Virus record (IMG/VR): IMGVR_UViG_2802429228_000006 | From: a virus | Lineage: Duplodnaviria > Heunggongvirae > Uroviricota > Caudoviricetes | Direction: 5' to 3' (one strand) | DNA length: 47,939 nucleotides | Shown here: positions 1,093 to 47,939 of the stretch, in pieces | How the letters are laid out: each line of letters begins with the position of its first letter | Numbering within the stretch: position 1 is the first letter of the stretch | The notes under the pieces: generated by a model | Seen by the model: only the letters and a program-made list of their open reading frames with translations | Database searches by the model: none | Told to the model about the DNA's origin: nothing | Made by a program: the position numbers and the translations under genes

Positions 1093-1924
1093 TTATTGTG
1101 ATCAAAAACAATATTTTATTAACATATGGTAAGGTGAGTTATAGATGCTTTTTTAGAGAAATAATTATTTAAAATAATAAGTTAGTGATGGTTATAGGAG
1201 GTGAGTATTGGGTGTGATTTCAAACTTCAAAACAAATGTGTCCTGCGATTTAATACACGATTGAGTTAATTTGAAATAACCTGTTGTAAACAGGTGAGTT
1301 TTAGTTCTTCACCTGTTTGGCAGGGGGGAGAATAATACGTAGTCTCCATACATTATGTAAGTATCCCGCATAATCGTGCCATTCACATTTAGAGACCCTT
1401 TTGCATTTCAGAAGAGCAACGTCCCCCTTGATTAAGGATAGCGTTGCATCGACCCATTGAACTCAGAGCTCATAACAGACATTCATTTTTTATGGCTGAA
1501 AGGCATTCGTGGCTGGTTGGTATATGGAAGCTGTGAACGAAAAGAATGGTGCTTGTTGAGGGGATAGATGAAGCACAGCCAAATTAAGCAGATGAAAAAA
1601 TAAAAAAGCCCGCATAAGCGGACTTCTATGTCACTAAAGAGCTGCGGCTCCTTTGCGTATCCTTTTTTGTCTCCTCACCGTCTGGTCGGTGTCTTACTGA
1701 GACTGCTAACTTCCTGTTTTTGTTGGTGTTGTTCTTACACCGTCTAATCATGATTGGCTGGCGGAGTTTGAATAAATATTATATTTATTTGATTTTTAAC
1801 GATTTTGTTTAATTCAGTTTTTGTGCGTATACCTAATTGTATACCAATGGCTGTAAGTTAATGTGAAATTAAAGCGCATTTTTACTTGGATTGATGCTAT
1901 ATCGTACAGGAAAAAAATTTTTTT

Positions 1925-4598: not shown

Positions 4599-4612
4599 GG
4601 TGTTGTTCTCCT

Positions 4613-5994: not shown

Positions 5995-6002
5995 GATGGC
6001 AG

Positions 6003-6614: not shown

Positions 6615-6892
6615 CGGGCTACCTCGTTAATGTCCATACAGCACCGGATAAGTCCGTCCGGCGTCGGGTAGCGCTTTATTTTGTGAATATTTTCAGCAGA
6701 CGCAACAGGGGGGATTTGTTCCGGTAGCCTTACAATGGCTGTGTGTTTTTTATCCATCTGGACTGGAAGGGTCTCAAAGGGTTCTGAAGGACCTGGAATT
6801 TTTTATAGTGAAATACAAATTGTTTTTTCTTATTTATTTCAGTGAATTAATAAAAATAAAAAGTAATAAACAGCACAAAAAGTCCATGAGCG

Positions 6893-6997
6893 GGTGAACA
6901 GTGGTGAACAGACGGTGAACAGTCATCGCTGCGATTGTTCACCCTTTAACTTACTGTATTGCTTATCTTTTTTCTTATGGTGAACAGAGGTGAACAG
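6893..6997. repeat. ori-like iteron cluster: five direct GGTGAACAG copies plus one inverted copy
   Basis: gggtgaacagtggtgaacagacggtgaacag...attgttcaccc...ggtgaacagaggtgaacag. Same octamer as the crr cluster and about 4.9 kb from it, as for P4 ori versus crr. Confidence 0.6.
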
Positions 6998-7076
6998 TAA
7001 AATATAAAAAAAACAAACAGTAAGCCGGTTTTTCCTGCGACCTTTTCCTGGCTTGCCGGTCTGAGGATGAGTCTCC

Positions 7077-7094
7077 TGTGTCAGGGCTGGCACA
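7077..7094 (+). promoter_or_regulatory. Delta/Ogr-type activator site (TGT-N12-ACA) of a P_sid-like late promoter
   Basis: tgtgtcagggctggcaca lies about 75-90 bp upstream of the sid ATG. Confidence 0.5.
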
Positions 7095-7166
7095 TCTGCA
7101 ATGCGTCGTGTTGTTGTCCGGTGTACGTCACAATTTTCTTAACCTGAAGTGACGAGGAGCCGGAAA

Positions 7167-7901: not shown

Positions 7902-8398
7902 TTTACTGCCCGTCGTGTGGACATGTTGCTCACACCCGTCGCGCACATTTCATGGACGATGGCACCAAGATAATGATTGCACAGTGCCGGAATATTTATT
8001 GCTCTGCGACATTTGAAGCGAGTGAAAGCTTTTTCTCTGACTGTAAAGATTCAGGAATGGAATACATTTCAGGCAAACAGAGATACCGCGATTCACTGAC
8101 GTCAGCCTCCGGCAGCATGAAACGCCCGAAAAGAATGCTTGTTACCGGATATTGTTGTCGGAGATGTAAAGGCCTTGCACTGTCAAGAACATCGCGGCGT
8201 CTGTCTCAGGAAGTCACCGAGCGTTTTTATGTGTGCACGGATCCGGGCTGTGGTCTGGTGTTTAAAACGCTTCAGACCATCAACCGCTTCATTGTCCGCC
8301 CGGTCACGCCGGACGAACTGGCAGAAAGCCTGCATGAAAAACAGGAACTGCCGCCAGTACGCTTAAAAACACAATCATATTCGCTGCGTCTGGAATGA
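7898..8398 (+). CDS. delta: Delta, late-gene transcriptional activator (tandem Ogr-like zinc fingers)
   Basis: 166 aa with two CxxC...C..C Ogr-type modules (MIYCPSCGHVAHTRRAH... and ...CCRRCKGLALSRTS...CTDPGCGLVF); start overlaps the sid stop. Confidence 0.85.
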   Translation: MIYCPSCGHVAHTRRAHFMDDGTKIMIAQCRNIYCSATFEASESFFSDCKDSGMEYISGKQRYRDSLTSASGSMKRPKRMLVTGYCCRRCKGLALSRTSRRLSQEVTERFYVCTDPGCGLVFKTLQTINRFIVRPVTPDELAESLHEKQELPPVRLKTQSYSLRLE

Positions 8399-8471
8399 GG
8401 GCTGCCGGTTAATACCGGCCGTCGCCGCACACCGTATTTTTATTCTTCAGCATGATGAGAAAGAGATAACG

Positions 8472-9044
8472 ATGGAAAGCACAGCCTTACAGCAGGCCTT
8501 TGACACCTGTCAGAATAACAAAGCAGCATGGCTGCAACGCAAAAATGAGCTGGCTGCGGCCGAACAGGAATATCTGCGGCTTCTGTCCGGGGAAGGCAGA
8601 AACGTCAGTCGCCTGGACGAATTACGCAATATTATCGAAGTCAGAAAATGGCAGGTGAATCAGGCCGCCGGTCGTTATATTCGTTCGCATGAAGCCGTTC
8701 AGCACATCAGCATCCGCGACCGGCTGAATGATTTTATGCAGCAGCACGGCACAGCACTGGCGGCGGCACTGGCACCGGAGCTGATGGGCTACAGTGAGCT
8801 GACGGCCATTGCCCGAAACTGTGCCATACAGCGTGCCACAGATGCCCTGCGTGAAGCCCTTCTGTCCTGGCTTGCGAAGGGGGAAAAAATTAATTATTCC
8901 GCACAGGATAGCGACATTTTAACGGCCATCGGATTCAGGCCTGACGCGGCTTCGGTGGATGACAGCCGTGAAAAATTCACTCCTGCGCAGAACATGATTT
9001 TTTCGCGTAAAAGTGCGCAACTGGCATCACATCAGTCTGTGTAA
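8472..9044 (+). CDS. psu: Psu, polarity suppression protein (Rho antagonist / capsid decoration)
   Basis: 190 aa; the MESTALQQAFDTCQNNKAAWLQRKNELAAAEQEYLRL N-terminus is recognisable as P4 Psu. Confidence 0.9.
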   Translation: MESTALQQAFDTCQNNKAAWLQRKNELAAAEQEYLRLLSGEGRNVSRLDELRNIIEVRKWQVNQAAGRYIRSHEAVQHISIRDRLNDFMQQHGTALAAALAPELMGYSELTAIARNCAIQRATDALREALLSWLAKGEKINYSAQDSDILTAIGFRPDAASVDDSREKFTPAQNMIFSRKSAQLASHQSV

Positions 9045-9080
9045 AACTCCCCGAAAATCCGCCCGTTTTTACTGAAAAAA

Positions 9081-9119
9081 GCCATGCATCGATAAGGTGC
9101 ATGGCTTTGCATGCGTTTT
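9081..9119 (+). terminator. Hairpin plus T-rich tract downstream of psu
   Basis: gccatgcatcgataaggtgcatggc followed by tttgcatgcgtttt. Confidence 0.45.
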
Positions 9120-9208
9120 CCTGCCTCATTTTCTGCAAACCACGCCATTCCCGGCGCGGTCTGAGCGTGTCAGTGCAACTGCATTAAAACCGCCCCGCAA
9201 AGCGGGCG

Positions 9209-9227
9209 GGCGAGGCGGGGAAAGCAC
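9209..9227. other. cos site, P2/P4 type (19-nt cohesive-end sequence)
   Basis: ggcgaggcggggaaagcac matches the P2/P4 cohesive end as I recall it, in the P4 position just past psu. Confidence 0.7.
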
Positions 9228-9315
9228 TGCGCGCGCATTGAATTAATTTATTAATAATTAAACTAGAATATGGAGTGGAGAAGTAAGAAACTTATAACAC
9301 TAAGGATAAGAGGAT

Positions 9316-11403
9316 ATGGGCAAAATGCAAAAAACTGAGGTCGAAGTATTTTCTGAGTTGGAGTCACTGTGTACATCTCATGGTTTTATTCATTGTTTAG
9401 CATTATTAAGCTGCATAAATAATATTACTATCTATGAAGACAAACTTAATTTTAAAGATGTGCAACATCTATACGAAAAAGAACGATTGATAAGAACCGA
9501 GATTTCTACGGTTGCAGGATTGTTGTTAAAGTCTGAAATTAATGTAAATTATCCCGGCGAAGAAGCACTGTTGAAATTATACGAAGATGTGAATGCATCT
9601 TTGAATATTTTACATAGTGCTATGCTTTTGACTGAGAAGAATGGCGATTACAACAATGCGATTATAAAAGAGAGTATATTTTATGCTGCTGAATCTGCTT
9701 ATGACTTTCAATATTTAGATATGGCGGAGGAAAAATACTCCTTAGATAATTCTTGGTTTTTAGAGAATATGGGGTTTACATGCATCGATATGGTGTCAGT
9801 AGGCCGGTGTATAGAGTCTATAATAGGGAGGCAAATTAATGATTTTTTAAATGGTGGTCAAGGGATTTTTAATGAGTGGCTATTAAATGCTTACGAGTTG
9901 TCAATTAATGAAATAGTTACTGAGACAGGTATTTCTTATGTGAAGGTAAGAACTATCATTGATTTGTTTTCGTCAGGTGGAAATTCAAATGAAACCTTTC
10001 AGTCTGTGAGTGACTTTAATATCTTTAATGCTAGACCCATAATCCGCACTGGAGATAGGTATTATTGTTTTTCAGCCTATTCATTGGCTCAGTCAATATA
10101 TGAAACACCATTTTTTTGGATGAATAATGACAAAAAATATAGACCTATATCTGCACAACATAGAGGACAATTTGTAGAAGATTATGTATATAGAAAAATG
10201 ACATCGATTTTTGGAATTGAGAATGTATTCAAAAATGTATATATAGTGAACTCTAATAATGAGACGCTAGGTGAAATAGATGTACTGGTATCTTTTTCTG
10301 ATTCGGTAATAATTTATCAGGCAAAATCTAAGAAGTTAACTATTGAAGCTAGAAAGGGAAATGGGAATGCTATACAAAAAGATTTTCAAGGTGCTATACA
10401 AGATGCTTATGATCAGGGGGTTTCTTGTGCTCAATTCATCGTATCTGGCGCAAGCCTAACTGATCAAAATTTCAACCGATTGAATCTCAACTCTTCAGTC
10501 TCTAGATGTTATATTGTTCCAATTATATCTGAGCATTATCCGTCTTTGAGTTTTCAGGTTCGTCAGTATTTGAATGTTAAAATAACAAATGAAATTTACC
10601 CGCCATTTATAATGGATGTTTTCCTTTTAGATGTTCTAACAGAGTTTTTAAATACGCCGCTATATTTTTTATCTTACATTGATCGTCGTTCGAAATATAA
10701 CATGAGAGTATTTTCTTCTCATGAATTGACAGTCTTTTCTTTGCATCTAAAACAGAATCTATGGATTGACAATGAATGTGATATGTTTATGTTGCATGAT
10801 GATATATGTGCTGATCTCGATATTGCGATGTTAGTCCGCAGGAAGGGGATCTCTGGTAAACATACTCCAAGTGGTATTCTAACACTCCATCAGGATGGCT
10901 TTATTAGAAAAATAATTAACTCATTGGAATCGGAAAATCATAAATTGGCGATGGATTTAGGTTTGCTTTTGCTTTCTTTGGATAGTGATGCTATTGAAAA
11001 CATCAATAAAATAGCTAATAAAACGATATTTTTATCTTCACTTGATAAGAAACACCATGATTTTTCAACTGTCATTGGGGATACGGGTATTACAGTTCAT
11101 TGTAATTACTATAAGAAAGATGTCGCGGGAAAAAAGTTGTATGAACATTGCATAAAAAGAAAATATATAACTAAATGTAAAAAATGGATTGGTATACATG
11201 TTAGACCAATAACATATGATATAAATTATGGAATTATGTTGGATTTTGAATGGGAATATTCTTCTGATATTGAAAGTATTATCACTCCTACTCCATTACA
11301 AAATACTTTGGTTAATGTTAAGGGAAATATGACTCAAGCAAAACGACCGGGTAGAAATGAACCATGTTTTTGTGGTAGCGGTAAAAAATGTTGTTTACGT
11401 TAA
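9316..11403 (+). CDS. Cargo protein (695 aa): putative PD-(D/E)xK/NERD-like nuclease with C-terminal SEC-C-type Cys motif; candidate anti-phage factor
   Basis: AT-rich ORF between cos and int. GEIDVLVSFSDSVIIYQAKSK fits a D..E.K nuclease core; the C-terminus CFCGSGKKCC fits a SEC-C metal-binding motif; no P-loop seen. Confidence 0.75.
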   Translation: MGKMQKTEVEVFSELESLCTSHGFIHCLALLSCINNITIYEDKLNFKDVQHLYEKERLIRTEISTVAGLLLKSEINVNYPGEEALLKLYEDVNASLNILHSAMLLTEKNGDYNNAIIKESIFYAAESAYDFQYLDMAEEKYSLDNSWFLENMGFTCIDMVSVGRCIESIIGRQINDFLNGGQGIFNEWLLNAYELSINEIVTETGISYVKVRTIIDLFSSGGNSNETFQSVSDFNIFNARPIIRTGDRYYCFSAYSLAQSIYETPFFWMNNDKKYRPISAQHRGQFVEDYVYRKMTSIFGIENVFKNVYIVNSNNETLGEIDVLVSFSDSVIIYQAKSKKLTIEARKGNGNAIQKDFQGAIQDAYDQGVSCAQFIVSGASLTDQNFNRLNLNSSVSRCYIVPIISEHYPSLSFQVRQYLNVKITNEIYPPFIMDVFLLDVLTEFLNTPLYFLSYIDRRSKYNMRVFSSHELTVFSLHLKQNLWIDNECDMFMLHDDICADLDIAMLVRRKGISGKHTPSGILTLHQDGFIRKIINSLESENHKLAMDLGLLLLSLDSDAIENINKIANKTIFLSSLDKKHHDFSTVIGDTGITVHCNYYKKDVAGKKLYEHCIKRKYITKCKKWIGIHVRPITYDINYGIMLDFEWEYSSDIESIITPTPLQNTLVNVKGNMTQAKRPGRNEPCFCGSGKKCCLR

Positions 11404-11410
11404 GGACAAT

Positions 11411-11429
11411 GGCGCGTTAAAAACGCGCC
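11411..11429. terminator. Bidirectional terminator between the cargo gene and int
   Basis: Perfect palindrome ggcgcgttaaaaacgcgcc flanked by T-runs. Confidence 0.5.
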
Positions 11430-11430
11430 T

Positions 11431-12624
11431 TTAGTTATTTTTTTTTACTTTGTTTCCCCACCATTCCATGAGTTCAATTCGTTGCTCTAAGTATGTAGAT
11501 CTATTGTATGCTCTCCGAACTTCATTTTTATCACTGTGAGCTAAAGCCGCTTCAATAACATCTGCATTGAAACCAGCTTCATTCATTGCAGTGCTTGCAA
11601 TAGAGCGAAGGCCATGAGCAACTAGTTTTCCGCCAAAACCAATGCGTTTTAAAGCTGCATTAGCAGTTTGGCTATTCATTGGCTGTTTAGGGTCATTTCT
11701 ACTTGGAAAAATATGTTCACGATGGGCACTAATAGGCTTCATTACTTCCAAAATATCTAAAGCCTGACGTGATAAAGGAACAATGTGTTCACGTTTGGCT
11801 TTCATCCGTTCAGGGGGAATAGTCCAGAGTTTTGTATCAAGATCGATCTCTGCCCAACAAGCACCAGAGGCTTCAGAAGGGCGTACAAGCGTCAAGAGTT
11901 GCCATTCAATGAGACAGCGAGTCGGAACAGATAGGTTTGACATAGCTAAAGAACGCATCAGCTTCGGCAATTCTTCTGGCCGCAATGTTGGCATGTTTTG
12001 CTTTTTTGGCTTCTCAAAGGCCATCCCAACCCCAGATGCTGGATTGGCATCAATCAGACCAGTGTTTACAGCGTAAATCATTATCTCGTTAATTCGCTGT
12101 ATCAGTCGACGTACAGTTTCAAGAGCCCCACGAGCTTTGATTGGCTCAAGAGCTTCGACTAGCGTCCGGGCTTTGATTTGCTGGACGGGAATCTCTCCAA
12201 TGGCTGGGAATATGTCTTTTTCCAGCGAACGCCATATATCTTTAGCGTAATCAGGGGAAACGCTTTTGCTTTTTATCTGAAACCAGTTGGTCGCAACAGT
12301 CGAAAAAATACTGTCTAGAGCTATCTGTTGTTGTTCTTCGATAAATTCAGCTTGAACTTGTGGGTCTATACCATTAGCCAACAAAGCAAGGTAATCCGCT
12401 CTTAACCGTCGAGCATCAGCAAGTGAAAGAGCGGGGAAAGCACCTATCCCCATCATTGTTCTTTTTTTTGTAGCTGGTCGTTGATAGCGAAATCGCCAAA
12501 GTTTCTTACCGCTTGTTTTCACTATCAGAAAGAGGCCTTCGCCATCATGCAACGTCAGATCCTTTTCTAATGCTTTAGCGCGCAGAACTTCTGTATTGGT
12601 TAGGGGGCGTGTTGTTCTTGCCAC
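11431..12624 (-). CDS. int: P4-type tyrosine integrase (IntA-like)
   Basis: 397-aa product with a P4/CP4-57 integrase-like sequence and a C-terminal catalytic region (HGLR..., ...AHSD...RAY). Adjacent to the att repeat. Confidence 0.9.
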   Translation of the reverse strand: MARTTRPLTNTEVLRAKALEKDLTLHDGEGLFLIVKTSGKKLWRFRYQRPATKKRTMMGIGAFPALSLADARRLRADYLALLANGIDPQVQAEFIEEQQQIALDSIFSTVATNWFQIKSKSVSPDYAKDIWRSLEKDIFPAIGEIPVQQIKARTLVEALEPIKARGALETVRRLIQRINEIMIYAVNTGLIDANPASGVGMAFEKPKKQNMPTLRPEELPKLMRSLAMSNLSVPTRCLIEWQLLTLVRPSEASGACWAEIDLDTKLWTIPPERMKAKREHIVPLSRQALDILEVMKPISAHREHIFPSRNDPKQPMNSQTANAALKRIGFGGKLVAHGLRSIASTAMNEAGFNADVIEAALAHSDKNEVRRAYNRSTYLEQRIELMEWWGNKVKKNN

Positions 12625-12645
12625 TTTGGCCGCTCCTTCATGAAT

Positions 12646-12697
12646 TGGTATACGCGTTTAGGCATATATCCTATCGTATACCTAAACGTATACCAAT
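12646..12697. promoter_or_regulatory. GTATACC box cluster between int and att (candidate integrase arm sites)
   Basis: ttggtatacg...cgtatacctaaacgtataccaat includes a 10-bp inverted repeat (ttggtatacg / cgtataccaa). The same box pair recurs at 1826..1848 at the other end of the element. Confidence 0.35.
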
Positions 12698-12737
12698 AAT
12701 CACTGGATTTAGCTGGATATCCTCGGACAACAGTAGA

Positions 12738-12773
12738 CACAAAAAAGCCCGCAGAGCTTGTGTCATGCGGGCT
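12738..12773 (-). terminator. Rho-independent terminator (minus strand) downstream of the ssrA-end copy
   Basis: Stem agcccgca/tgcgggct with a T6 run on the minus strand. Confidence 0.45.
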
Positions 12774-12808
12774 TTCAGGATTTCTCCGGACGTATCCGGA
12801 AGAGCAAG

Positions 12809-12853
12809 TGGTGGAGCTGGCGGGAGTTGAACCCGCGTCCGAAATTCCTACAT
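12809..12853 (-). repeat. 45-bp direct repeat of the ssrA 3' end (att core copy)
   Basis: tggtggagctggcgggagttgaacccgcgtccgaaattcctacat is identical to 46879..46923, the 3' end of intact ssrA, then diverges. Confidence 0.85.
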
Positions 12854-12969
12854 ACCATTATAACATGTTGCAAAACAACTATTTATGTTAATTTTCAATC
12901 ACTTAAGTTTACGATGTATTACCTTGTTTTATGTGTTTTTAACTCTTTGCCGCCATTATGCCGCCACTC

Positions 12970-14193
12970 TTATTTTAAATATTCATACTTCATCATTTGA
13001 TGAATAAGGAGTTCAACTTTTCTAAAAGTGGTATTTTCATAATGTTCAACAAGGGATTCATCAAAGTCTTCAATCCATCCTTTTGCGGGATTATAGGTCG
13101 AAAAATTAAAATTATTTTTGTATAGATAGGGGGTGGCTTCTAGTGTACTAAACACAGTCCAGGAAACAGGGTTTGTAACTCTAAATATTTTTTTTAAAAC
13201 AGGACAGTGGGTATCATTGGTTTCAACTATGTTTTCTATTTTTGGGGGGATAATTACATTAATCCCAATATCGCTATCTTTTTGGTTTAATATCTTTGTT
13301 GATCGATACGATATCCCTGATATATTTTTGTTTCTGTCACTACTAATCCATTGCATTAATAGGTTTGGTATTATGTATTCTTTATTAAAACTTGCGTTTT
13401 CATTATCTTTTGTATAGTTACATGCAAGGACTAAAGGCCATGCAATCAACTTTGAAATTTTATCATTAATTTGATCCATGAAATTATCATTATTTAGATC
13501 GTAATCATCATCTGAACCTTGTTCGAATGAATACCAAAGATCTCCCGGTTTTGTACGAAGTGCAGATGTTAAATTGTACCCAAGATCTAAAATTCTTATA
13601 TTTGAATTTTCTTTATCGGATATGAAGGAAGATATGTAAAGTTTATCAAAGTCAGGTTTTCCCATTTCTTGCCAACATACAAATATTGATGTTCCAAGAT
13701 ATAAACATGGAAGACCGGATACAGAAAATCTTTGTGCGCTAACTAAATGTCTATTTTTAAATGGTATATGAAATAATTCTTCTCTTTGTTTTAGGATGCA
13801 CTCACTTTTCCTTACGCGAAATAAAGGGGTGTGTGGGTTGCATAATTTAGTTAGAGGAACAGTCATCTTATAAAGATGAGTATGCATTGATGACTTGGTA
13901 ATTGCCAAATCGAATTTTTTATAAGCTTCTTTAACATTTCCTATTAAAAATAGCTTAAGAGTTTCTATTATTTTATCAGATAAATATATTATTGATTTTG
14001 TGCGAATCTTTACTTGTTTAATTATCTCGTTGTCAGGATATTTATTTCTAATGGAGTCAATTAATTCTAAATAGCACTCGACTCTCTTAGAAAAGTCAGA
14101 AATTAGTTTTCCCTCGGCAATGAATGGGGGTTGCAATAGTTCATGTTTTTTTAGTTCTTCCGATATCTGTTCTAATTCGATAATGTTGCGCAT
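12970..14193 (-). CDS. RES-domain protein (407 aa), candidate NAD-targeting toxin / abortive-infection effector
   Basis: AT-rich ORF between att and int. LFRVR...QRFSVSGLPCLYLGTSIFVCWQE matches the RES signature (R...GRWN..G.P.LY......E). No adjacent partner gene. Confidence 0.6.
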   Translation of the reverse strand: MRNIIELEQISEELKKHELLQPPFIAEGKLISDFSKRVECYLELIDSIRNKYPDNEIIKQVKIRTKSIIYLSDKIIETLKLFLIGNVKEAYKKFDLAITKSSMHTHLYKMTVPLTKLCNPHTPLFRVRKSECILKQREELFHIPFKNRHLVSAQRFSVSGLPCLYLGTSIFVCWQEMGKPDFDKLYISSFISDKENSNIRILDLGYNLTSALRTKPGDLWYSFEQGSDDDYDLNNDNFMDQINDKISKLIAWPLVLACNYTKDNENASFNKEYIIPNLLMQWISSDRNKNISGISYRSTKILNQKDSDIGINVIIPPKIENIVETNDTHCPVLKKIFRVTNPVSWTVFSTLEATPYLYKNNFNFSTYNPAKGWIEDFDESLVEHYENTTFRKVELLIHQMMKYEYLK

Positions 14194-14197
14194 GTGC

Positions 14198-15217
14198 TTA
14201 ATCCATCAAGGTTGCTAATGGGTTTTTAGTTACTGCATCTTCAAGATGATCTGGGGAAAAATGAGCGTAAATCATCGTCATTTTTATATCGGCATGTCCA
14301 AGAATATCGCGCAGTACCAGTATATTTCCACCGTTCATCATAAAATGACTGGCAAATGTATGGCGCAGAACATGGGTACATTGGCCTTCTGGTAGTTCTA
14401 AACCGGCTCGCTTTACTGCACGCTCAAAGGCTTTTCTGCATGGGGTGAATAACTTCCCCCTATTCTTAGGCAGTTCTTCATATAAATCCTTAGAAATAGG
14501 CACAGTTCGGTTTTTCTTGCCTTTGGTCTTGGTATAAGTGATACGGTATTTTGATACCTGATGACTCTGCAGGTTTTCGGCTTCGCTCCAGCGTGCGCCG
14601 GTGGCCAGGCATATTTTTGCAATCAAAAGCAGGCTGGAGCTTTGAGAATCGGCGCAGGCATCCAGCAGACGTTTAATTTCTTCCGGGGTCAGGAACGCCA
14701 ATTCACTCTCAGCAATTTTAAATGTTGGCAGCCCAGCAAGCGGGTTGGGGGCTGACCAGTGGCCCAGCTTTTTCAGTGTACCAAAAACAGATGATAGATT
14801 GCGCTGTTCAAGGTTTACCGTGCGGGGCTTAACGGGCGACATAAACGTGCCATCTTCATTTCGTACTTCACCTTTTAACCGTGCTTCGCGGTATTTCGTA
14901 AAGTCACCGGCTGTCAGTTCTGAAGCGATGGGATCGCCTAGACCATTACAGATAATTCTAAGTTTCGCTATGAGGCGCTTGGGGTCTGCGAGTGTTTGAC
15001 CATACAGGGAATACCACTGCTCAATTAATTCTGATAGGTGTCGCCGATCTTCCTTTTCCCCCAGCCATGGTTTTTTGTTCACTTCTTCCATTGTGAAGCT
15101 TTCAAAAGCAATGGCTTCGCCTTTCGTAGCAAATTGCTTACGCACGCGCTTGCCATTGCGTCCATTGGGATAGCACTCGCACAACCATTTACCGTTTGGC
15201 TGTTTTCTGACAGTCAT
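14198..15217 (-). CDS. int: P2/186-family tyrosine integrase
   Basis: 339 aa with a C-terminal catalytic region (ARWSEA..., HVLRHTFAS, ...MTMIYAH); position next to the repressor. Confidence 0.9.
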   Translation of the reverse strand: MTVRKQPNGKWLCECYPNGRNGKRVRKQFATKGEAIAFESFTMEEVNKKPWLGEKEDRRHLSELIEQWYSLYGQTLADPKRLIAKLRIICNGLGDPIASELTAGDFTKYREARLKGEVRNEDGTFMSPVKPRTVNLEQRNLSSVFGTLKKLGHWSAPNPLAGLPTFKIAESELAFLTPEEIKRLLDACADSQSSSLLLIAKICLATGARWSEAENLQSHQVSKYRITYTKTKGKKNRTVPISKDLYEELPKNRGKLFTPCRKAFERAVKRAGLELPEGQCTHVLRHTFASHFMMNGGNILVLRDILGHADIKMTMIYAHFSPDHLEDAVTKNPLATLMD

Positions 15218-15219: not shown

Positions 15220-15852
15220 TTAGATACTCTTTATTACTTTGACTGCACGCCCAATAACTTCCACATCATCGGCAGAGCACTCGAAAGACGCTTCATCTTG
15301 ATTTACTACAATCTTATTGCCGGGAATCCGCATGATTTTTGCAATAATAATCATTCCATCAATATTGATAAGCCAGAATCCATTGCTGACTTGTTTAACT
15401 GATTTATCGATGAGATAACAATCAGTAGGGGTTTCTAAGAACATCGATTCTTCATAATCTGCAGGTAATATGCTGTGGTCTAGGAAAATCTCTTCATCAA
15501 TACTGAGTTGTCCATTTTCCAAGGTTCCTTTAGGAATAGATGGAGTTATGAGTTTGGATAACGGTTTAATTGCTTGTTTGTTCTCGTTATGAGATCTTTT
15601 CTCAGACTCGTATCCTTCTTTCATGCTTCCCTGTCCAGTGGCTAACCAAAGTAACGAAACACCGGTTTCTAGTGCACACTGAATTATCCAGTCAGCAGGA
15701 AAACTGTCACGTAACACTCTGTTTGCCATAGTACTTTTTGAGACATTCAGGTGCTCGCTTAATGCCTGCTTAGTTGTGAATCCATAAGCCTCAAGCAGCC
15801 TCTCAATAGCTGCCTTACCTCCCGTATCGGAACCCATTCTGATGTTTAACAT
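15220..15852 (-). CDS. cI: 186-type CI immunity repressor
   Basis: 210 aa with an N-terminal HTH; divergent from an Apl-like gene across an operator-bearing intergenic region; GGAG RBS. Confidence 0.7.
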   Translation of the reverse strand: MLNIRMGSDTGGKAAIERLLEAYGFTTKQALSEHLNVSKSTMANRVLRDSFPADWIIQCALETGVSLLWLATGQGSMKEGYESEKRSHNENKQAIKPLSKLITPSIPKGTLENGQLSIDEEIFLDHSILPADYEESMFLETPTDCYLIDKSVKQVSNGFWLINIDGMIIIAKIMRIPGNKIVVNQDEASFECSADDVEVIGRAVKVIKSI

Positions 15853-22221: not shown

Positions 22222-23631
22222 ATGTCTTTTCTTGATATAAAAAAAATGAGTAAAGAGAGGTTTAATGCTTTTGTTGATTGGACCAGAATGCCAAATACTG
22301 AACTTTTAGGCTATGAGTTTGAGTGGTACTGTAGTCCGAGAGAGTTCCTGCTAGGGGCACTATTATTGGATCAAATCGATGAAGATTATAGCGGTATTGT
22401 TTTAGCAAGAGACTTAAGTGGGAGATATAGATGTATTGACCTATTTACTAGTGTTTCAGAAATGAATTCTGCACGAGCAAAACTAAAGAAATTAATGCGG
22501 AAGCATACTAAATTAAACGTAAAAGTATTTCCACAAGGTGATGAAACTTATAAAGCAATGGATTTATTCACACCTATAGTTACACCAGATAAACTTCATC
22601 ATCATTTTTCATTATTTGGTAAATATGCGAACTGGTCGCCTGCAACAGGGATAATCAAGGAAATGATGAATCATTTTGAGGATGTCGACGGGAATTTTAT
22701 AGAGCAGTTTCAGACAACAGGTTTTGATGCCCGGCTATGGGAGTTATATCTTTTCGCATATTTACGAGAGGAACACTTTTGGCTAGATAGGCAGTTTAAT
22801 GCCCCTGATTATGTGGCACGTAAGTATGGTAATACTATTTGCATTGAAGCTGTAACGGTTAATCCAACAGGGAATGATATTAATCAATCATCTGAAATGC
22901 TATCTGAACCTAAAAGTAAGGAAGAATTGCTAGAGAAAATAGAGAATTATATGCCGATTAAATTTGGAAGTTCTCTCTATTCTAAACTGAAAAAGAAAAC
23001 TCGATACTGGGATCTAGAACATGTTAAGGGGAATCCTTTAATTTTCGCAATTGCTGATTTTCATGAACCAAACTCTATGATTTGGTCCCATAGTGCACTT
23101 TGGCAGTATCTTTATGGTATTCGCTATGAGCATGTTAAATCTGAAGATGGATGTTACAGTTTAGCAACTAAGAAAATTATATCGCATCAATTTGAGAAAA
23201 AGGAAATCCCTTCAGGCTTTTTCTTCTTGGATGAGTCTGAAAATATTTCGGCCGTCCTTAGTTCTAATAGTGGTACTATATCGAAGTTTAATCGGATGGG
23301 AAAACTGGCTGGTTTTGGAAGAAGTGACCTTAGATTATTTAGGAGTGGTTACTGCCATGATCATGACCCAGAGGCATTATATCCAGCAGCATTTAGTTTT
23401 GAAGTGAAAGAAGGCGATATTACAGAAACATGGGCAGAAGGTTTAAATATGTATCATAATCCTAATGCTAAATATCCTGTAGATCCTGATTTATTTCCTT
23501 CAATAGCACATCATTTTCTTGAAAATGGAGAGGTTAAAAGTATAGTGCCTGACTTTCATCCGTATACATCTATTACCATAAATGTCTTAACTCAAAATAA
23601 TAAAAAACAAAAAATCAGAGTAGATGAGTAA
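22222..23631 (+). CDS. Cargo protein (469 aa) of unrecognised family; candidate anti-phage factor
   Basis: AT-rich ORF in the variable region between gene A and portal gene Q; no P-loop, RT or obvious nuclease motif. Confidence 0.7.
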   Translation: MSFLDIKKMSKERFNAFVDWTRMPNTELLGYEFEWYCSPREFLLGALLLDQIDEDYSGIVLARDLSGRYRCIDLFTSVSEMNSARAKLKKLMRKHTKLNVKVFPQGDETYKAMDLFTPIVTPDKLHHHFSLFGKYANWSPATGIIKEMMNHFEDVDGNFIEQFQTTGFDARLWELYLFAYLREEHFWLDRQFNAPDYVARKYGNTICIEAVTVNPTGNDINQSSEMLSEPKSKEELLEKIENYMPIKFGSSLYSKLKKKTRYWDLEHVKGNPLIFAIADFHEPNSMIWSHSALWQYLYGIRYEHVKSEDGCYSLATKKIISHQFEKKEIPSGFFFLDESENISAVLSSNSGTISKFNRMGKLAGFGRSDLRLFRSGYCHDHDPEALYPAAFSFEVKEGDITETWAEGLNMYHNPNAKYPVDPDLFPSIAHHFLENGEVKSIVPDFHPYTSITINVLTQNNKKQKIRVDE

Positions 23632-32496: not shown

Positions 32497-34197
32497 TTAT
32501 TCAAGGTGATTTGAAAGAGTAATTAATGGCTCAATCGGTTGGAACGCTTTTAAGGATGTTAATATGTTTTTAACTTCCTTTGATACGATAGATAACGGGT
32601 TGTCTGTTACAGATAAGTAGGTGGTTAAATCTTGACCTGAAACACGGATAACATGTGGTAATATCGCAGTTATAACTGGTGTCCAAAGGTCGATTAAATC
32701 ATCCAGAGAGTTATTTTTAGATAATGCTGTATCATATTTATATTTTATTTTCTTCTTGTTCAAAGGTTTATCTGTTAATTCTTCAAGTATTTCTCCGATG
32801 ACGGATATTAAAAAGAATCGAGACTTTAAATTTTGGAGGAATAATAAGTTATCCTCATCTACTTTAATTTTATTCTCTTTTGCACGGATTTGAGATTTTA
32901 CTTTTTCTATAGCTTTTGAAATAGTGTAAGCACATAAAATATGCTGGGCTTTCGAATCATGAAAGGCATTGTCATAGGCTGATTTTGTATCGAAAACGTA
33001 GTTTTTACCTCTATTGGCGCTAACATAATCCCCATGTAACGCTATCAGCGGTTGAGCAACAGACTCAATGCCAAATAAAGAACCAGTATTTTCGAAGCCG
33101 CGTTTCAGTGAATATGTATAACCAAGAGTGGAAAATTCTTCTGCCACCTGTTTTTGTTCTGTGCTGTTAGAGTAGTGATCCCAGGTTGTAATATGATTCT
33201 GAGTATTATTATACTGGACTATTTTTTTTACTTTGTCCGCATCATTACATTCAATAACCTTACAAAGGACTTTTAGGCCATCTAATTTTTGTATATCTTG
33301 AACTGAACCAATAGAACCAGTGGTTTGAGCTCCATTTATGATTGAAACTCCTTCCAACAACCCTTTTTCTTTGTTGAATTTTGTTGTTAGGATTGATACA
33401 CCATTGTTAAAGACAAAGAAGTCTTTTGGGGATGTTTCTGCGGTATTCTTAATTGATGAGTTTATTTTTCTTCTCTTATTTAATCCCATGAACCCCCTAT
33501 AATTAGCAGAAAATAATTCTGCTCCATAATTTTTGTATAAATAATTTAGCCAAGTGCCGTTTGCAAAGCCAACATGTGAAGTCCAGCCATCACCTTGTAC
33601 AGAATTTATAAGTTCGCCATTGAACTTTATATTGTCAGTCACAACAATTTGTTGTGATAGCGCAATATACAATTTTTCAAGACTATTAACACCAAGTTCT
33701 CTGTAAGTTACCTCAATTTCTTTGTCTGCAAATCTACCTGCTAGATAGTCACGACAAGTTTCAAGCTCAGTTTTAACCTGCTCAGATTCGGCACAATTAT
33801 GGATATATAATAATTCAACAGCTTCAATTTCGTTATCATCAATTAATTTTCTAACCTCAGAAATTTTTGCTCTTAATTTTGCATTTGGAGACTCTCCTGA
33901 GCCTGCCATAATCCACGCTAAAGCAGTGTTTAAGTCAGAAGCTTTATTTGCAGGCGCAACTATTTTAAGTGCTTGCTGATTGCAGTAGTAACCCTGAGCA
34001 ATAAATAACGTTGAATTAATTACGGTAATGAAGTCTATTTTCTTATCGTTTCCACCATCAGTAAGTCCATCAGATGCTAGCTTATCAAAATCGGATTCAT
34101 CTAAGTAAAGACCTAATGACCATAAAAGATGTGCGTTACTAGTCCCGTACTTTTCTAACAGGGAAGTTTTATTTTGCAGTTGTCTTAAGTGTTCCAT
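32497..34197 (-). CDS. AIPR-type (abortive infection phage resistance) protein, 566 aa
   Basis: AT-rich ORF antisense to the tail genes; the conserved block ...GVSIINGAQTTGS... resembles the AIPR family. Confidence 0.65.
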   Translation of the reverse strand: MEHLRQLQNKTSLLEKYGTSNAHLLWSLGLYLDESDFDKLASDGLTDGGNDKKIDFITVINSTLFIAQGYYCNQQALKIVAPANKASDLNTALAWIMAGSGESPNAKLRAKISEVRKLIDDNEIEAVELLYIHNCAESEQVKTELETCRDYLAGRFADKEIEVTYRELGVNSLEKLYIALSQQIVVTDNIKFNGELINSVQGDGWTSHVGFANGTWLNYLYKNYGAELFSANYRGFMGLNKRRKINSSIKNTAETSPKDFFVFNNGVSILTTKFNKEKGLLEGVSIINGAQTTGSIGSVQDIQKLDGLKVLCKVIECNDADKVKKIVQYNNTQNHITTWDHYSNSTEQKQVAEEFSTLGYTYSLKRGFENTGSLFGIESVAQPLIALHGDYVSANRGKNYVFDTKSAYDNAFHDSKAQHILCAYTISKAIEKVKSQIRAKENKIKVDEDNLLFLQNLKSRFFLISVIGEILEELTDKPLNKKKIKYKYDTALSKNNSLDDLIDLWTPVITAILPHVIRVSGQDLTTYLSVTDNPLSIVSKEVKNILTSLKAFQPIEPLITLSNHLE

Positions 34198-45959: not shown

Positions 45960-46027
45960 AGTGTTCTCAATATTGATATTTTGTGTATCATTACAATGAT
46001 TCTGATAGCAAAGGTAGGGATCTGGAT

Positions 46028-46246
46028 ATGATGAATTGTCCAAAGTGTGGTCATGCGGCACACACAAGGAGCAGTTTTCAAGTAACTGAAAGCACCAAAG
46101 AGCGTTACTGCCAGTGCCAAAATATTAACTGCGGGAGCACTTTTGTTACCCATGAAACAGTGGTCCGGTTTATTGTGACACCCGCACTGATTGCTACTGC
46201 TCCTCCACATCCATTGCCAGGTGGTCAGGGGCATATGAATTTTTGA
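46028..46246 (+). CDS. ogr: Ogr, late-gene zinc-finger transcriptional activator
   Basis: MMNCPKCGHAAHTRSS...CQCQNINCGSTF matches the Ogr C2C2 zinc finger; start chosen at the homolog N-terminus. Confidence 0.8.
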   Translation: MMNCPKCGHAAHTRSSFQVTESTKERYCQCQNINCGSTFVTHETVVRFIVTPALIATAPPHPLPGGQGHMNF

Positions 46247-46253
46247 GAAAGAG

Positions 46254-46275
46254 AACCTGCTACGGCAGGTTTTTA
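46254..46275. terminator. Bidirectional terminator between ogr and the convergent cargo gene
   Basis: aacctgctacggcaggtt followed by ttta. Confidence 0.5.
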
Positions 46276-46755
46276 TTCATCTGGGATCTCACCCGTTTCA
46301 AGAAAATGTATAAAGCCAGGCTCATCTATGATGATTGTGCCTTTCATCCTGGCTGCCGATACTTTTGATGGGCCTGCATTGTAACCGCAACAGAGCATCT
46401 GAAGGCTTTGGGTTACAGAGGTTCTTACCGTTAATCCTTGTTCATTCGCCTTATCAACCAATCTTTCTTTATCTGCTTTCTTAAATCCGGTGAAACACAC
46501 ATCGAATGTATTTTTTTTCGGACCAGACTGCTTAGTGAGATGTGAGTAGTTTTCGGGGAGGAATGACGCGCATTCCTGAATGGCTTGTTCTGGTGAATCG
46601 TACTGTTTAAGAATGCGGTCTTTTCGGAAGGTTTTTATTCGATCGGTGTTCTTACAAATGCCCTGTATATGATTTTCGCTATAACTGATGCTCTGTATTG
46701 AGTGAACTCCGATACGACCATTTGCATTGATGTAAACAAAGTGAAGTTCTTCCAT
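46273..46755 (-). CDS. Small cargo protein (160 aa) with WYL-like N-terminal and BRCT-like C-terminal domain
   Basis: N-terminal ...IKTFRKDRI resembles the WYL signature (RTFRLDRI); the C-terminal hydrophobic/Gly pattern (VCFTGF...GPSK...IIIDEPGFIHFL) resembles a BRCT fold; AAGAGG RBS. Confidence 0.55.
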   Translation of the reverse strand: MEELHFVYINANGRIGVHSIQSISYSENHIQGICKNTDRIKTFRKDRILKQYDSPEQAIQECASFLPENYSHLTKQSGPKKNTFDVCFTGFKKADKERLVDKANEQGLTVRTSVTQSLQMLCCGYNAGPSKVSAARMKGTIIIDEPGFIHFLETGEIPDE

Positions 46756-46837
46756 GTGAAACCTCTTTGCATGATTTCAAGATGGCGACAGGCAAGATGG
46801 ACGCAAAAGTCTGTCGCCATTTTGCCGCCACTACCAA

Positions 46838-46870
46838 AGAAAAAGGGGCTACGCTTTTACGTAACCCCTT
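46838..46870 (-). terminator. Rho-independent terminator of ssrA (prophage-side sequence)
   Basis: Stem AAGGGG...CCCCTT with TTT on the minus strand immediately 3' of ssrA. Confidence 0.5.
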
Positions 46871-46878
46871 GATTTATT

Positions 46879-47242
46879 TGGTGGAGCTGGCGGGAGTTGA
46901 ACCCGCGTCCGAAATTCCTACATCCTCGGTACTACATGCTTAGTCAGTCTTTACATTCGCTTGCCAGCTGCGGACAGACACGCCACTAACAAACTAGCCT
47001 GATTAAGTTTTAACGCTTCAACCCCAGGCAAGGCTTCCACGCGATCTCTTTTGGGTTTGACCTCTCTTGATCCCCGTCCTAAGAGCGGAGGCTAGGGAGA
47101 GAGGGCTCTAAGCAGGTTATTAAGCTGCTAAAGCGTAGTTTTCGTCGTTTGCGACTATTTTTTGCGGCTTTTTACGAGGCCAACCGCCCCTCGGCATGCA
47201 CCTTGGGTTTCGCAAATCCCGTCGAATCCAGAATCAGCCCCA
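46879..47242 (-). ncRNA. ssrA: tmRNA (SsrA, 10Sa RNA)
   Basis: The reverse complement reads GGGGCTGATTCTGGATTCGACGGGATTTGCG...GCAAACGACGAAAACTACGCTTTAGCAGCT...GGTTCAACTCCCGCCAGCTCCACCA, including the ANDENYALAA tag-coding region. Ends may be off by 1 nt. Confidence 0.95.
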
Positions 47243-47456
47243 ATGTGTAACGGTGAGTATACCAGATTTGTGAGCGCCATGACCAGCCCCAATGGCGACA
47301 TCGTCAAGGATTTAGCGCCTGCGTAGCATGACTTTTATTCGATTAAGCATGGGGATGACTACATCTGTGTTAAATATGATTATCAACAAGATGTTCATTC
47401 GCGCCACCGGAGAGGGGAGGCGCGGTGAGGGGTTGATCAGTATATGTTATGTAGGT

Positions 47457-47939
47457 TTAACGGTGAGCGTTTTTCATGATACGTGCTTTATCCACCTGCC
47501 ATTCACGTTCTTTGATGTCAGAACGTTTATCGTGTTGTTTCTTACCTTTCGCGACACCAATTTTTACTTTGCACCAGGCATTTTTCCAGTACAGGGAGAG
47601 CGCCACTACGGTATAGCCTTCACGATTTACGCGACCGTACAATGAGTCCAGTTCGCGCTGGTTGAGAAGTAGCTTGCGAGTACGAGTAGGATCGCACACC
47701 ACATGCGTGGAAGCCACAGCCATCGGCGTGATATTTGCGCCAAACAGGAACGCTTCTCCGTCGCGCAGAAGAACATAGCTGTCGCTAATATTGGCTTTTC
47801 CTGCGCGCAGGGATTTAACTTCCCAGCCTTGCAGGGCGAGTCCCGCTTCAAACTCTTCTTCAATAAAGTATTCGTGACGGGCGCGCTTGTTGAGCGCTAT
47901 GGTTGCTGAACCAGGTTTATGTGCTTTTTTCTTCGTCAT
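47457..47939 (-). CDS. smpB: SsrA-binding protein SmpB, complete; start codon at the window edge
   Basis: 160-aa [28 protein letters not shown]... matches E. coli SmpB; conserved smpB-ssrA synteny. Confidence 0.95.

Follow-up and report, generated by a model that had tools for sequence, protein, structure and literature searches.

The window, by which we mean the whole 47,939-nucleotide stretch of DNA analyzed here, has one intact ssrA gene, and sequence comparison supports the conclusion that its terminator and 3' trailer are phage DNA. Positions 46756-46923 are, with little doubt, the attL of a P2-like prophage of the Fels-2/186 type that has integrated at the ssrA 3' end, and the limits of this prophage can be fixed to the base, at 12854-46878. 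The window is a complete two-element array reaching from smpB to csiD. Read from position 1, it consists of csiD, the native ssrA trailer and terminator, a damaged ssrA remnant, a P4-like satellite, a 45-nt copy of the ssrA end, the P2-like prophage, ssrA, and smpB, with the following features.

1-1083, minus strand: csiD (glaH), a host gene (Pfam CsiD, 7.7e-152)
1602-1754, minus strand: native ssrA trailer with the native terminator (hairpin and T-run at 1624-1602)
1755-1772, minus strand: copy 3, the damaged native ssrA 3' remnant, TTCAAACTCCGCCAG-----CCA, with 5 nt of the acceptor strand missing
1773-12808: P4-like satellite ("element B"), identified from Pfam and from Rfam C4 and isrK
2265-4598, minus strand: alpha primase gene of the satellite
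6049-6136, minus strand: C4/CI-type RNA of the satellite (Rfam)
7898-8398, plus strand: delta/ogr-like gene of the satellite
8472-9044, plus strand: psu of the satellite
9316-11403, plus strand: 695-aa open reading frame of the satellite, with no assigned function
11431-12624, minus strand: int of the satellite
12741-12772, minus strand: terminator hairpin from the satellite, whose counterpart in K-12 is the CP4-57 terminator
12809-12853, minus strand: att core copy 2, a displaced ssrA 3' fragment, exact repeat of 46879-46923
12854-46878: P2-like prophage (Peduoviridae, Fels-2/186-type), 34 kb, identified from Pfam and gene order
12948-12967, plus strand: int-side arm with two direct putative arm repeats, TGCCGCCAT and TGCCGCCAC, 11 bp apart
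12970-14193, minus strand: 407-aa cargo gene of the prophage
14198-15217, minus strand: int of the prophage (Pfam Int_N, 1e-28, and Phage_integrase, 6e-26)
15220-15852, minus strand: cI of the prophage
45983-46246, plus strand: ogr of the prophage (Pfam Ogr_Delta)
46273-46755, minus strand: 160-aa cargo gene in the ogr-attP slot, BRCT/NAD-ligase-C-terminus-like (phrog_2561, 2e-77)
46782-46792, minus strand: third arm-type motif, inverted (TGTCGCCAT on the minus strand), the lineage-specific arm of the inverted repeat
46812-46831, plus strand: two direct 186-type putative Int arm repeats, TGTCGCCAT (46812-46820) and TGCCGCCAC (46823-46831), 11 bp apart
46835-46870, minus strand: phage-borne intrinsic terminator with a 12-bp stem, 4-nt loop, and U-run (terminator scan)
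46871-46878, minus strand: 8-nt A/U-rich single-stranded spacer, AAUAAAUC, from CCA to hairpin, unpaired in the fold
46879-46923, minus strand: att core copy 1, the last 45 nt of ssrA, exact repeat of 12809-12853
46879-47241, minus strand: intact ssrA (tmRNA), the sole full copy in the window (ARAGORN and Rfam RF00023)
47457-47939, minus strand: smpB, the host gene upstream of ssrA (160-aa open reading frame, Pfam SmpB)

An earlier, sequence-only reading of this DNA had intact ssrA directly abutting prophage DNA, with its last 45 nt forming the att repeat, and both claims hold. ARAGORN and Rfam each identify an intact 363-nt tmRNA, with the tag ANDENYALAA, and the match to RF00023 (295 bits, E 1.7e-120) covers the full model, 1-374. 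The last 45 nt span the 3' strand of helix 2, the T-arm, the acceptor 3' strand, and ACCA, and they recur at 12809-12853 in the same orientation with 45 of 45 positions identical, a match not found in shuffles of the window. Identity stops at position 46 (C at 46924 versus A at 12854), and the junction lies at 46878/46879, with the prophage between the two copies. The displaced copy serves as both the prophage attR and the ssrA-proximal end of the P4-like satellite. The identical 45 nt are present in the attP of phages Cartapus, MLG42, and SEN8, and the upstream flank of the displaced copy (12854 onward, ACCATT...) matches the Cartapus attP. Because the two copies in the window are identical, neither the crossover point nor the phage-derived share of the ssrA end can be read from the sequence. 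With this caveat, the claim that the prophage supplies the functional ssrA 3' end and its terminator stands. All junction features read on the minus strand, a point on which the sequence-only reading was silent.

The repeat-bounded interval contains a tyrosine integrase gene, and the genes around attP follow the P2-like order D, ogr, attP, int, cI; the prophage gene order is shared with phages Cartapus and SEN8. The segment 46250-46925 is 99% identical to E. coli prophages. Fels-2 and SopEPhi (Felsduovirus) and the Elveevirus phages (Cartapus and vB_YpM_MLG42) have the same 45-nt core, spacer, terminator hairpin, and GCCGCCA-type arm pair, and they share with the window the order ogr-(cargo)-attP-(cargo)-int-cI. 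The cargo itself differs: a 160-aa BRCT-like gene and a 407-aa gene here, a RES-domain gene in one slot in Cartapus, a retron reverse transcriptase in E. coli C2, and a 48-aa open reading frame in SEN8. Position 46756 is the base immediately before the ATG of the 160-aa gene, whose product has a weak match to Pfam BRCT, under the curated cut-off, and a partial match to PADLOC PDC-S48 (1.8e-7).

We compared the junction with 5426 complete E. coli genomes, working from the matches listed, and the whole junction is present in 166 of the 5426. Among these matches, similarity in genomes that lack a related prophage breaks off no more than a few bases from where ssrA ends (46874-46886), and one strain with a related P2-like prophage, C2, matches through the terminator. 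The sequence-only reading had assigned the terminator hairpin to the prophage side, and free phages bear this out: cargo gene, terminator, 45-nt core, and int are contiguous as attP in Cartapus, Yersinia phage MLG42, and SEN8, so that the hairpin sits inside attP. From the cargo gene as far as the core and ACCATT, Cartapus and the window are nearly identical, and MLG42 and SEN8 are circular records with the order cargo, terminator, core, int. Island-free Escherichia loci, in which csiD lies within ~680 nt of ssrA, have an unrelated trailer with a terminator ~130-150 nt downstream. Two of them (L130 and L131) hold ssrA, native trailer, and csiD in succession, an unoccupied attB with different downstream sequence. 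E. coli MS7163 carries the same prophage and has its native trailer displaced to the far end, after attR. Together, the differing island-free loci, the free-phage attP, and the displaced trailer of MS7163 identify the terminator and trailer of the intact ssrA as phage DNA. The alignment with prophage-free ssrA loci that had been proposed earlier shows a trailer that differs from the junction onward, and not identity through the terminator.

Directly 3' of the intact ssrA, the sequence begins AATAAATCAAGGGGTTACG..., and the spacer is nearly invariant (AAUAAAWC) across 15 related attP/attL sequences. The terminator stem starts 8 nt past CCA, with 12 pairs at 46870-46843 and then TTTCTTT in a minus-strand scan. 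This is a GC-rich stem-loop (6 GC pairs of 12) with a 4-nt loop, directly followed by UUUUUCUUU. It folds at -19.4 kcal/mol (z = -5.2), and none of 200 shuffles folds as well. The hairpin is fully paired (100% of cells) in 15 distinct sequences from ~10 genera, and five pairs have changed on both sides, a level of covariation equaled by 0 of 500 shuffles; slid controls collapse. G-U pairs are tolerated on the ssrA-sense strand only. These patterns point to RNA-level selection on the hairpin structure on the ssrA-sense strand; since ssrA and the cI-int operon are transcribed from the same strand, covariation does not separate termination of ssrA in the lysogen from termination of the operon in the free phage. 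With permissive settings, Rfam gave the tmRNA end, one chance-level match, and nothing else in 46600-46900.

Between the terminator and the start of the cargo gene lies the inverted repeat noted earlier, which we confirmed as 10 bp, ATGGCGACAG and CTGTCGCCAT, at 46783-46792 and 46811-46820. It widens to 14 nt with one mismatch (46778-46791 and 46811-46824), and a perfect repeat of at least 10 bp arises in the 123-nt spacer in 0.45% of 2000 dinucleotide shuffles. Based on consensus matching, the inverted repeat consists of predicted 186-type Int arm-type sites and is not an RNA-processing element. The direct repeats at 46812-46831 match the 186-type arm consensus, tgccGCCActt (PMC3448106), and the first of them is the conserved arm of the inverted repeat. 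The direct pair is kept in 11 aligned relatives with 186-type arm motifs (both repeats are in view in 10), regardless of which cargo gene follows, and the remaining 4 aligned relatives have GTCCAC (P2-type) repeats at its position. The putative pair on the int side has the same spacing and orientation, and the Cartapus arm holds a related pair, TGCCGCCAA and TGTCGCCAT. By sequence consensus, then, both arms carry direct repeat pairs, each 11 bp apart, as in an attP. The arm motif occurs 12 times in the window versus 2.2 expected, with 5 of the 12 within the att arms.

If the junction lay beyond the hairpin, the terminator and trailer would be native host sequence and the prophage would start nearer the cargo gene. 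The one argument for this placement is that a housekeeping RNA gene would be expected, a priori, to retain a terminator of its own. It is refuted by the free-phage attP, the island-free trailers, and the MS7163 attR, and we regard it as barely conceivable: the hairpin lies within the free-phage attP, the trailer is unrelated both in island-free Escherichia loci and in the native remnant of the window, and E. coli without a related prophage (among those listed) diverge within a few bases of 46879. It is also quite unlikely that the inverted repeat ATGGCGACAG...CTGTCGCCAT serves to regulate the cargo gene, whether as an operator bound by a dimeric regulator or, in a read-through leader, as an RNA hairpin. 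Such a role would fit its position 27-73 nt upstream of the cargo ATG with no separate promoter detected (no sigma-70-like promoter was found from the terminator to the ATG, in 46756-46878), its folding as a 10-14-bp stem in read-through RNA, and the low probability of its arising by chance. However, the terminator-proximal arm is part of the direct pair that matches the 186-type consensus and is conserved whatever the cargo. The cargo-proximal arm, the third motif, occurs inverted in Cartapus and E. coli MS7163 as it does here, but is missing in Yersinia phage MLG42, Citrobacter pasteurii, and "[Erwinia] mediterraneensis," all of which have a homologous cargo gene, and in Fels-2 and SEN8 a direct copy replaces it.

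A further possibility, which we doubt but take more seriously, is that the hairpin is kept mainly for the phage, where it would end or stabilize the cI-int-cargo transcript of the unintegrated genome and shield the prophage from the strong ssrA promoter, with correct ssrA 3' end formation as a by-product. In the circular phage, a single strand carries cI, int, the 407-aa gene, core, hairpin, and 160-aa gene as one contiguous block, and transcription that continued past ssrA would be antisense to ogr and the late genes. The covariation shows selection at the RNA level on this strand without naming the transcript. This benefit to the phage is compatible with our main explanation, not exclusive of it, and in the sample of ssrA loci, unrelated P4-type islands mostly place a terminator right after ssrA even though their int is transcribed away from it, which suggests a requirement set by ssrA.

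Our preferred explanation is integration through a gene-restoring attP. The phage attP carries the 45-nt copy of the ssrA 3' end between predicted integrase arm-binding repeats, and tyrosine-integrase recombination within the identity block very probably rebuilt an intact ssrA. The rebuilt gene has a phage flank of 8-nt spacer, 12-bp terminator, two predicted direct arm sites, and one extra inverted copy, followed by the cargo gene; the extra copy creates the "long inverted repeat." The old ssrA 3' end and its downstream signals were, on this explanation, moved to 12809-12853. Transcripts of ssrA would now stop at the phage terminator, and the usual endo- and exonucleolytic steps of 3' maturation would trim the short phage trailer to the encoded CCA. 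The unintegrated phage has this hairpin downstream of its cI-int operon, which the hairpin probably terminates as well. The sequence-only reading also had tmRNA maturation depending on phage sequence. The trailer of the intact ssrA is indeed phage-derived, but the mature sequence is unchanged and we only infer the dependence. As a weaker possibility, leaky read-through of the terminator from the very strong ssrA promoter may express the promoter-less BRCT-like cargo in lysogens.

With the satellite and the native remnant, ssrA in this window has three 3' ends in a row, the first from the phage, the second from the P4-like satellite, and the third native. The 73-nt satellite trailer, which folds as a whole at -27.6 kcal/mol, aligns with the K-12 ssrA/CP4-57 junction. 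Mismatch searches for ssrA fragments returned two copies only, and the third, damaged one was seen by reading the sequence beside csiD. The native trailer aligns through its terminator with the island-free loci L130 and L131 and with the attR flank of MS7163, and its 66-nt distal segment containing the hairpin folds at -25.2 kcal/mol; no consensus structure was obtained for the native trailer with mafft and RNAalifold on 23 sequences. In island-free genomes, csiD directly follows ssrA, starting ~680 nt after it in L130 and L131. Integration of the P4-like element first or of the P2-like element first leads to the same final arrangement.

This layering bears on what loss of an element would do. 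Excision of the P2-like prophage alone would rejoin ssrA to the identical 45 nt and the satellite terminator. The inactivating lesion is absent from the displaced prophage copy (45/45) and the 5-nt deletion is found only in the native remnant, 1755-1772. Because the prophage's displaced copy is intact, its excision alone should not inactivate ssrA, and because the lesion lies only in the distal native remnant, a switch would operate only if both elements were lost. Without those 5 nt in the native remnant, a functional tmRNA 3' end exists only via a mobile element, and curing both elements from the strain would probably inactivate tmRNA. We suggest tentatively, as something less than an even prospect, that trans-translation is held hostage by the helper-satellite pair, with loss of both leaving a nonfunctional tmRNA and the elements stabilizing each other as a layered CP4-57-type switch.

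The arrangement at the junction is already known and well documented, and the Fels-2/SopEPhi family is known for it at ssrA. It is reportedly the standard consequence of integration into tRNA and tmRNA genes, as Williams in 2003, Pelludat in 2003, and Onodera in 2022 are said to have described. The finding therefore has little value as a discovery, and its uses lie in prophage mapping, reading tmRNA work, and strain engineering. Among 119 Enterobacterales species genomes listed, the trailer and terminator come from a mobile element in ~91 and are native in 28; in most of these Enterobacterales, the model strain K-12 included, the pre-tmRNA trailer and terminator are thus mobile-element DNA. 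Statements on "the" ssrA terminator or precursor are consequently strain-specific.

When an island splits a tRNA or tmRNA gene, its own attP makes the gene whole again (PMC4383910), and tDNA-targeting elements in general follow the Islander principle of an intact tDNA and a displaced direct 3' fragment with a tyrosine integrase between them (Williams 2002, 2003; PMC4383910). Every member of a tandem array of this type brings a fragment and an integrase of its own, and the window is a typical array of two with no essential difference. Fels-2 and SopEPhi integrate in ssrA (PMC3448106; PMC10107115, Table 1). Coliphage 186 is similar in having direct tgccGCCActt repeats that flank the core, a tRNA-like target gene, and a long gene-preserving common core (PMC3448106); it differs in its target, a tRNA-Ile gene instead of ssrA, and the arm sites here are predicted from sequence.

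Where the displaced ssrA end is damaged, tmRNA function comes to depend on the element in residence, as tested for CP4-57 (PMC10107115). CP4-57 in K-12 and CP4So in Shewanella are P4-type "phage regulatory switches" at ssrA, and loss of the element inactivates tmRNA (PMC10107115; PMC5148205). The window resembles CP4-57 in that the element integrated at the end of ssrA provides both the functional 3' end and a terminator that belongs to the element, the native end, now displaced, carries damage, and the satellite trailer and terminator hairpin are like those of CP4-57. The 5-nt deletion in the native remnant is the lesion in PMC10107115 Table 1, where "CGCCAGC-----CA" is listed for other ssrA islands. 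Unlike with CP4-57, it is a P2-like prophage that adjoins the intact ssrA here, and its displaced copy is intact, as in the P2-integrase rows SopEPhi, Fels-2, and SpaX of that table; the fourth such row, Shewanella putrefaciens, has a 1-nt deletion.

The host may be an Escherichia species other than E. coli. By exact-protein look-up, the SmpB protein encoded here is identical to E. coli SmpB and adjoins ssrA in many Escherichia contigs, and the smpB gene has 33 differences from that of K-12, 32 of them at codon position 3. The smpB-ssrA segment has 92-93% identity to every E. coli genome, and equally to the E. albertii, Escherichia sp. MOD1-EC7003, and other loci compared, and the differences are almost all synonymous or intergenic.

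The sequence downstream of the only intact ssrA in the window is phage attP DNA. It carries a conserved terminator-like hairpin, while the former signals have been displaced and the native 3' end is defective. ssrA lies on the minus strand, and therefore every feature of the sequence-only reading of 46756-46923 is read on that strand: ssrA, its CCA at 46879, the trailer, and the cargo ATG at 46755.

Features of the ssrA array, in window coordinates
1-1083: csiD (Pfam, 7.7e-152)
1754..1602, minus: native trailer (the host's own 3' flank of ssrA) and native terminator
1772..1755, minus: damaged native ssrA 3' remnant, TTCAAACTCCGCCAG-----CCA, without 5 nt of the acceptor strand (Delta-5)
11431-12624: P4-type integrase of the satellite
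12772..12741: the satellite's own terminator, with a counterpart in CP4-57 of K-12
12854-46878: P2-like prophage, between two 45-nt repeats
12948-12967: arm-type repeats TGCCGCCAT and TGCCGCCAC, 11 bp apart
12970-14193, minus: 407-aa ORF between int and attP, phrog_7835 (unknown function)
14198-15217, minus: tyrosine integrase, int (Pfam Int_N and Phage_integrase)
15220-15852, minus: cI
45983-46246: ogr, next to the ssrA end
46273-46755, minus: 160-aa cargo gene, phrog_2561, partial PDC-S48 match
46783-46792 / 46811-46820: inverted repeat, ATGGCGACAG/CTGTCGCCAT
46812-46831: arm-type repeats TGTCGCCAT and TGCCGCCAC, 11 bp apart
46870..46835, minus: terminator-like hairpin (terminator scan), 12-bp stem, 4-nt loop and UUUUUCUUU
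46879-47241, minus: intact ssrA (tmRNA), 363 nt (ARAGORN and Rfam, 295 bits, full model, tag ANDENYALAA)
47457-47939: smpB, upstream of ssrA

The window contains the entire array. In the orientation of ssrA, it runs smpB, ssrA, P2-like prophage, 45-nt copy, P4-like satellite, damaged remnant, native trailer, and csiD. The prophage has cI, int, and the 407-aa gene on its distal-repeat side and D, ogr, and the 160-aa gene on its ssrA side. The satellite fills the interval between the damaged remnant and the 45-nt copy (1773-12808) and further carries psu, a delta/ogr-like gene, an alpha primase, and a C4/CI-type RNA. The same arrangement would result whichever of the two elements arrived first, so their order is not deducible.

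All elements that the sequence-only reading described are present where it placed them. Its att repeat, the last 45 nt of ssrA (46879-46923), recurs exactly at 12809-12853, a match seen in no shuffle of the window; identity breaks at base 46 (C at 46924 versus A at 12854). Intact ssrA is joined directly to prophage DNA, as proposed, with phage attP sequence following the CCA at 46879.

Four independent comparisons locate the junction. Over positions 46250-46925, the window shares 98-99% identity with E. coli prophages and with Escherichia phage Cartapus (Elveevirus, Peduoviridae). Cartapus has ogr, the same 160-aa gene, the inverted repeat, the hairpin, the 45-nt core, ACCATT, a cargo gene, and int in contiguous order, and this segment equals, almost base for base, window 46700-46923 joined to 12854 onward. 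The circular records of Yersinia phage vB_YpM_MLG42 (isolated on Y. pestis EV76) and Salmonella phage SEN8 have the same contiguity, and the end of the Fels-2 record is annotated as part of attP. Among the 5426 E. coli genomes searched, 166 have the whole junction; in the listed genomes without this phage, similarity stops close to the ssrA 3' end, at positions 46874-46886, and in E. coli C2, which has a related prophage, the match extends through the hairpin. Two island-free loci (L130 and L131), where csiD follows ssrA within ~680 nt, have a trailer (ATCATGATTGGACGG...) unrelated to that of the phage and a terminator ~130-150 nt downstream. Finally, E. coli MS7163 has the same prophage, and there exactly the native trailer comes after the distal 45-nt copy. 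Intact ssrA thus has a hairpin and trailer of phage DNA. We rejected a junction beyond the terminator, for which a prophage-free locus would be identical through the terminator; all four comparisons point the opposite way.

The terminator was thus correctly assigned to prophage-side sequence, as the hairpin lies within the attP of free phages and island-free loci have another trailer. Eight unpaired A/U-rich bases separate it from the CCA, and it folds at -19.4 kcal/mol (z = -5.2). We aligned 15 distinct attP/attL sequences from ~10 genera, including Escherichia, Salmonella, Klebsiella, Cronobacter, Yersinia, Franconibacter, Enterobacter, Photorhabdus, Xenorhabdus, and '[Erwinia]'. Standard pairing was found in 180/180 cells of the 12 pairs, with both-sided changes at 5 pairs; no shuffle reached these pairing and covariation values, and slid controls dropped to 30-67% pairing. 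The 8-nt spacer, AAUAAAWC, is close to invariant in this alignment. Several positions have G-U pairs on the ssrA-sense strand that would be A-C mismatches on the opposite strand, and therefore selection has acted on RNA of the ssrA-sense strand. The cI-int operon lies on this strand too, ahead of the hairpin in the circular phage, so these data cannot separate termination of ssrA from that of the int operon as the selected role. In the ssrA sample, most of the unrelated P4-type islands also have a terminator immediately behind ssrA, an argument for a requirement set by the ssrA context itself. We think that the hairpin is kept for terminating both.

An inverted repeat between the terminator and the cargo gene start was likewise confirmed, and a perfect one of such length arose in the 123-nt spacer in 0.45% of dinucleotide shuffles. 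We do not read it as an RNA-processing element, and a cargo-regulatory role is improbable given what its arms consist of. For P2-like phages, a published analysis (PMC3448106) distinguishes an arm-binding consensus of P2 type (tgTGGaCa) from one of 186 type (tgccGCCActt). The window has 12 occurrences of the motif TGYCGCCAY versus 2.2 expected, 5 of them in the att arms. Of the two arms of the inverted repeat, the one nearer the terminator is the first conserved arm-type site, and the one nearer the cargo gene is a third arm-type copy in inverted orientation. Cartapus and MS7163 have this inverted copy; MLG42, Citrobacter pasteurii, and '[Erwinia] mediterraneensis', all with a homologous cargo gene, lack it, and Fels-2 and SEN8 have a direct copy in its place. 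Where relatives have P2-type arms (ESSI-2, Franconibacter, and others), this position is occupied by GTCCAC repeats. Since its arms are arm-type sites and the third copy varies among lineages, the inverted repeat is best read as recombination architecture composed of putative integrase arm sites.

Just past the terminator, 46824-46842 (UUUGGUAGUGGCGGC, arm site included) has its complement in the tmRNA 3' acceptor strand and CCA (46873-46891). In a read-through RNA, the two are predicted to pair around the hairpin; the complementarity is partly kept where relatives have 186-type arms, and it may be coincidental. An exact TGTCGCCAT also occurs in host DNA at 47292-47300 (minus), ~50-60 nt upstream of the ssrA start and close to its predicted promoter, probably by chance.

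Recombination by Int between attP and ssrA would have taken place within the 45-nt block, and the C/A difference puts the crossover 3' of position 46. As a general rule for tDNA-targeting integrases, the identity block spans the crossover to the 3' end of the gene; if this holds here, most of the functional copy's 45 nt would be phage-derived. The claim that the prophage supplies the ssrA 3' end and terminator stands for the terminator and trailer; the phage share of the last 45 nt cannot be read from two identical copies. Transcripts of ssrA would end at the phage terminator, and the ~40-nt trailer would be removed by endonucleolytic cleavage in the A/U-rich spacer, then exonucleolytic trimming to the encoded CCA. 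E. coli stable RNAs follow such a pathway of 3' cleavage and trimming. The earlier interpretation is supported overall; the dependence of tmRNA maturation on phage sequence is an inference, and we assign the inverted repeat to integrase arm sites instead.

If only the P2-like prophage were lost, ssrA would be rejoined to the second, identical 45-nt copy and the satellite's terminator, with no lesion. Loss of both elements would leave ssrA with the Delta-5 end, and tmRNA would probably be inactive. The remnant TTCAAACTCCGCCAG-----CCA has the same lesion type as CGCCAGC-----CA, listed for other ssrA islands by Onodera et al. (PMC10107115), who report that mutations of those other bacteria abolished trans-translation when put into E. 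coli tmRNA. The two elements may form a layered helper-satellite 'addiction' of trans-translation. A promoter search between the ssrA terminator and the 160-aa gene found none, and ssrA read-through possibly expresses this promoter-less gene. Neither layered addiction nor such read-through would surprise greatly.

A phage-supplied ssrA 3' flank is an already known arrangement. Restoration of a split tDNA by island attP, tandem arrays included, is the principle behind the Islander database (PMC4383910); integration of Fels-2 and SopEPhi into ssrA has been shown (cited in PMC3448106); and for CP4-57 and CP4So, tmRNA function was demonstrated to depend on the resident prophage (PMC10107115; PMC5148205). 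At least 119 species genomes have this ssrA 3' end. Among the 119 listed, trailers are native type in 28, Fels-2-type phage in 11, and P4-type island in 80; a P4-like integrase gene is detectable in 57 of these listed 80, mostly starting about 165-560 nt downstream. In the K-12 reference strain, the pre-tmRNA trailer is CP4-57 DNA.

The 160-aa cargo protein resembles the BRCT-bearing C terminus of NAD-dependent ligases, and the ogr-attP slot of E. coli C2 (L006, the C2 locus, 1550-2465) holds a retron-like reverse transcriptase. The 407-aa ORF had no Pfam or PADLOC match. Cartapus has a RES-domain gene in its place, so the int-attP slot is a second variable cargo slot flanking attP. Candidate anti-phage defence genes in the prophage lie at 22222-23631 (plus) and 32497-34197 (minus); the prophage encodes a near full-length PD-T7-1 homologue (E 1e-196) and an AbiU-like 566-aa protein (E 2e-24), the latter on the strand opposite the plus-strand ORFs between ~27 and 46 kb.

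The satellite and its potential P2-like helper stand in tandem at one ssrA site. Between psu and int, a position known for variable defence cargo, a 695-aa ORF (9316-11403, plus) had no Pfam or PADLOC match and is possibly an uncharacterised defence gene. Adjacent Rfam matches at 6049-6276 (minus), to C4 antisense RNA (86 bits) and isrK (70 bits), form a stretch that resembles the P4 immunity (CI RNA) region.

The native trailer (1602-1754) is recognisably conserved from Escherichia to Xenorhabdus and Photorhabdus (L016, L024, L047, L019, L072, and other loci). In native trailers, GGAC/AGAC motifs recur, and an ~11-nt unit such as GATACGCAAAA or TGCACGTGAAA is present 2-4 times in tandem ahead of the terminator; RNAalifold found no consensus structure for the native trailer. 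The host segment 46924-47939 is only 92-93% identical to each of the 5426 E. coli genomes and about 92-93% identical to E. albertii and Escherichia sp. MOD1-EC7003 loci, with smpB differences nearly all synonymous, unlike the prophage end beside ssrA, which is ~99% identical to E. coli prophages. A non-coli Escherichia species is the probable host.
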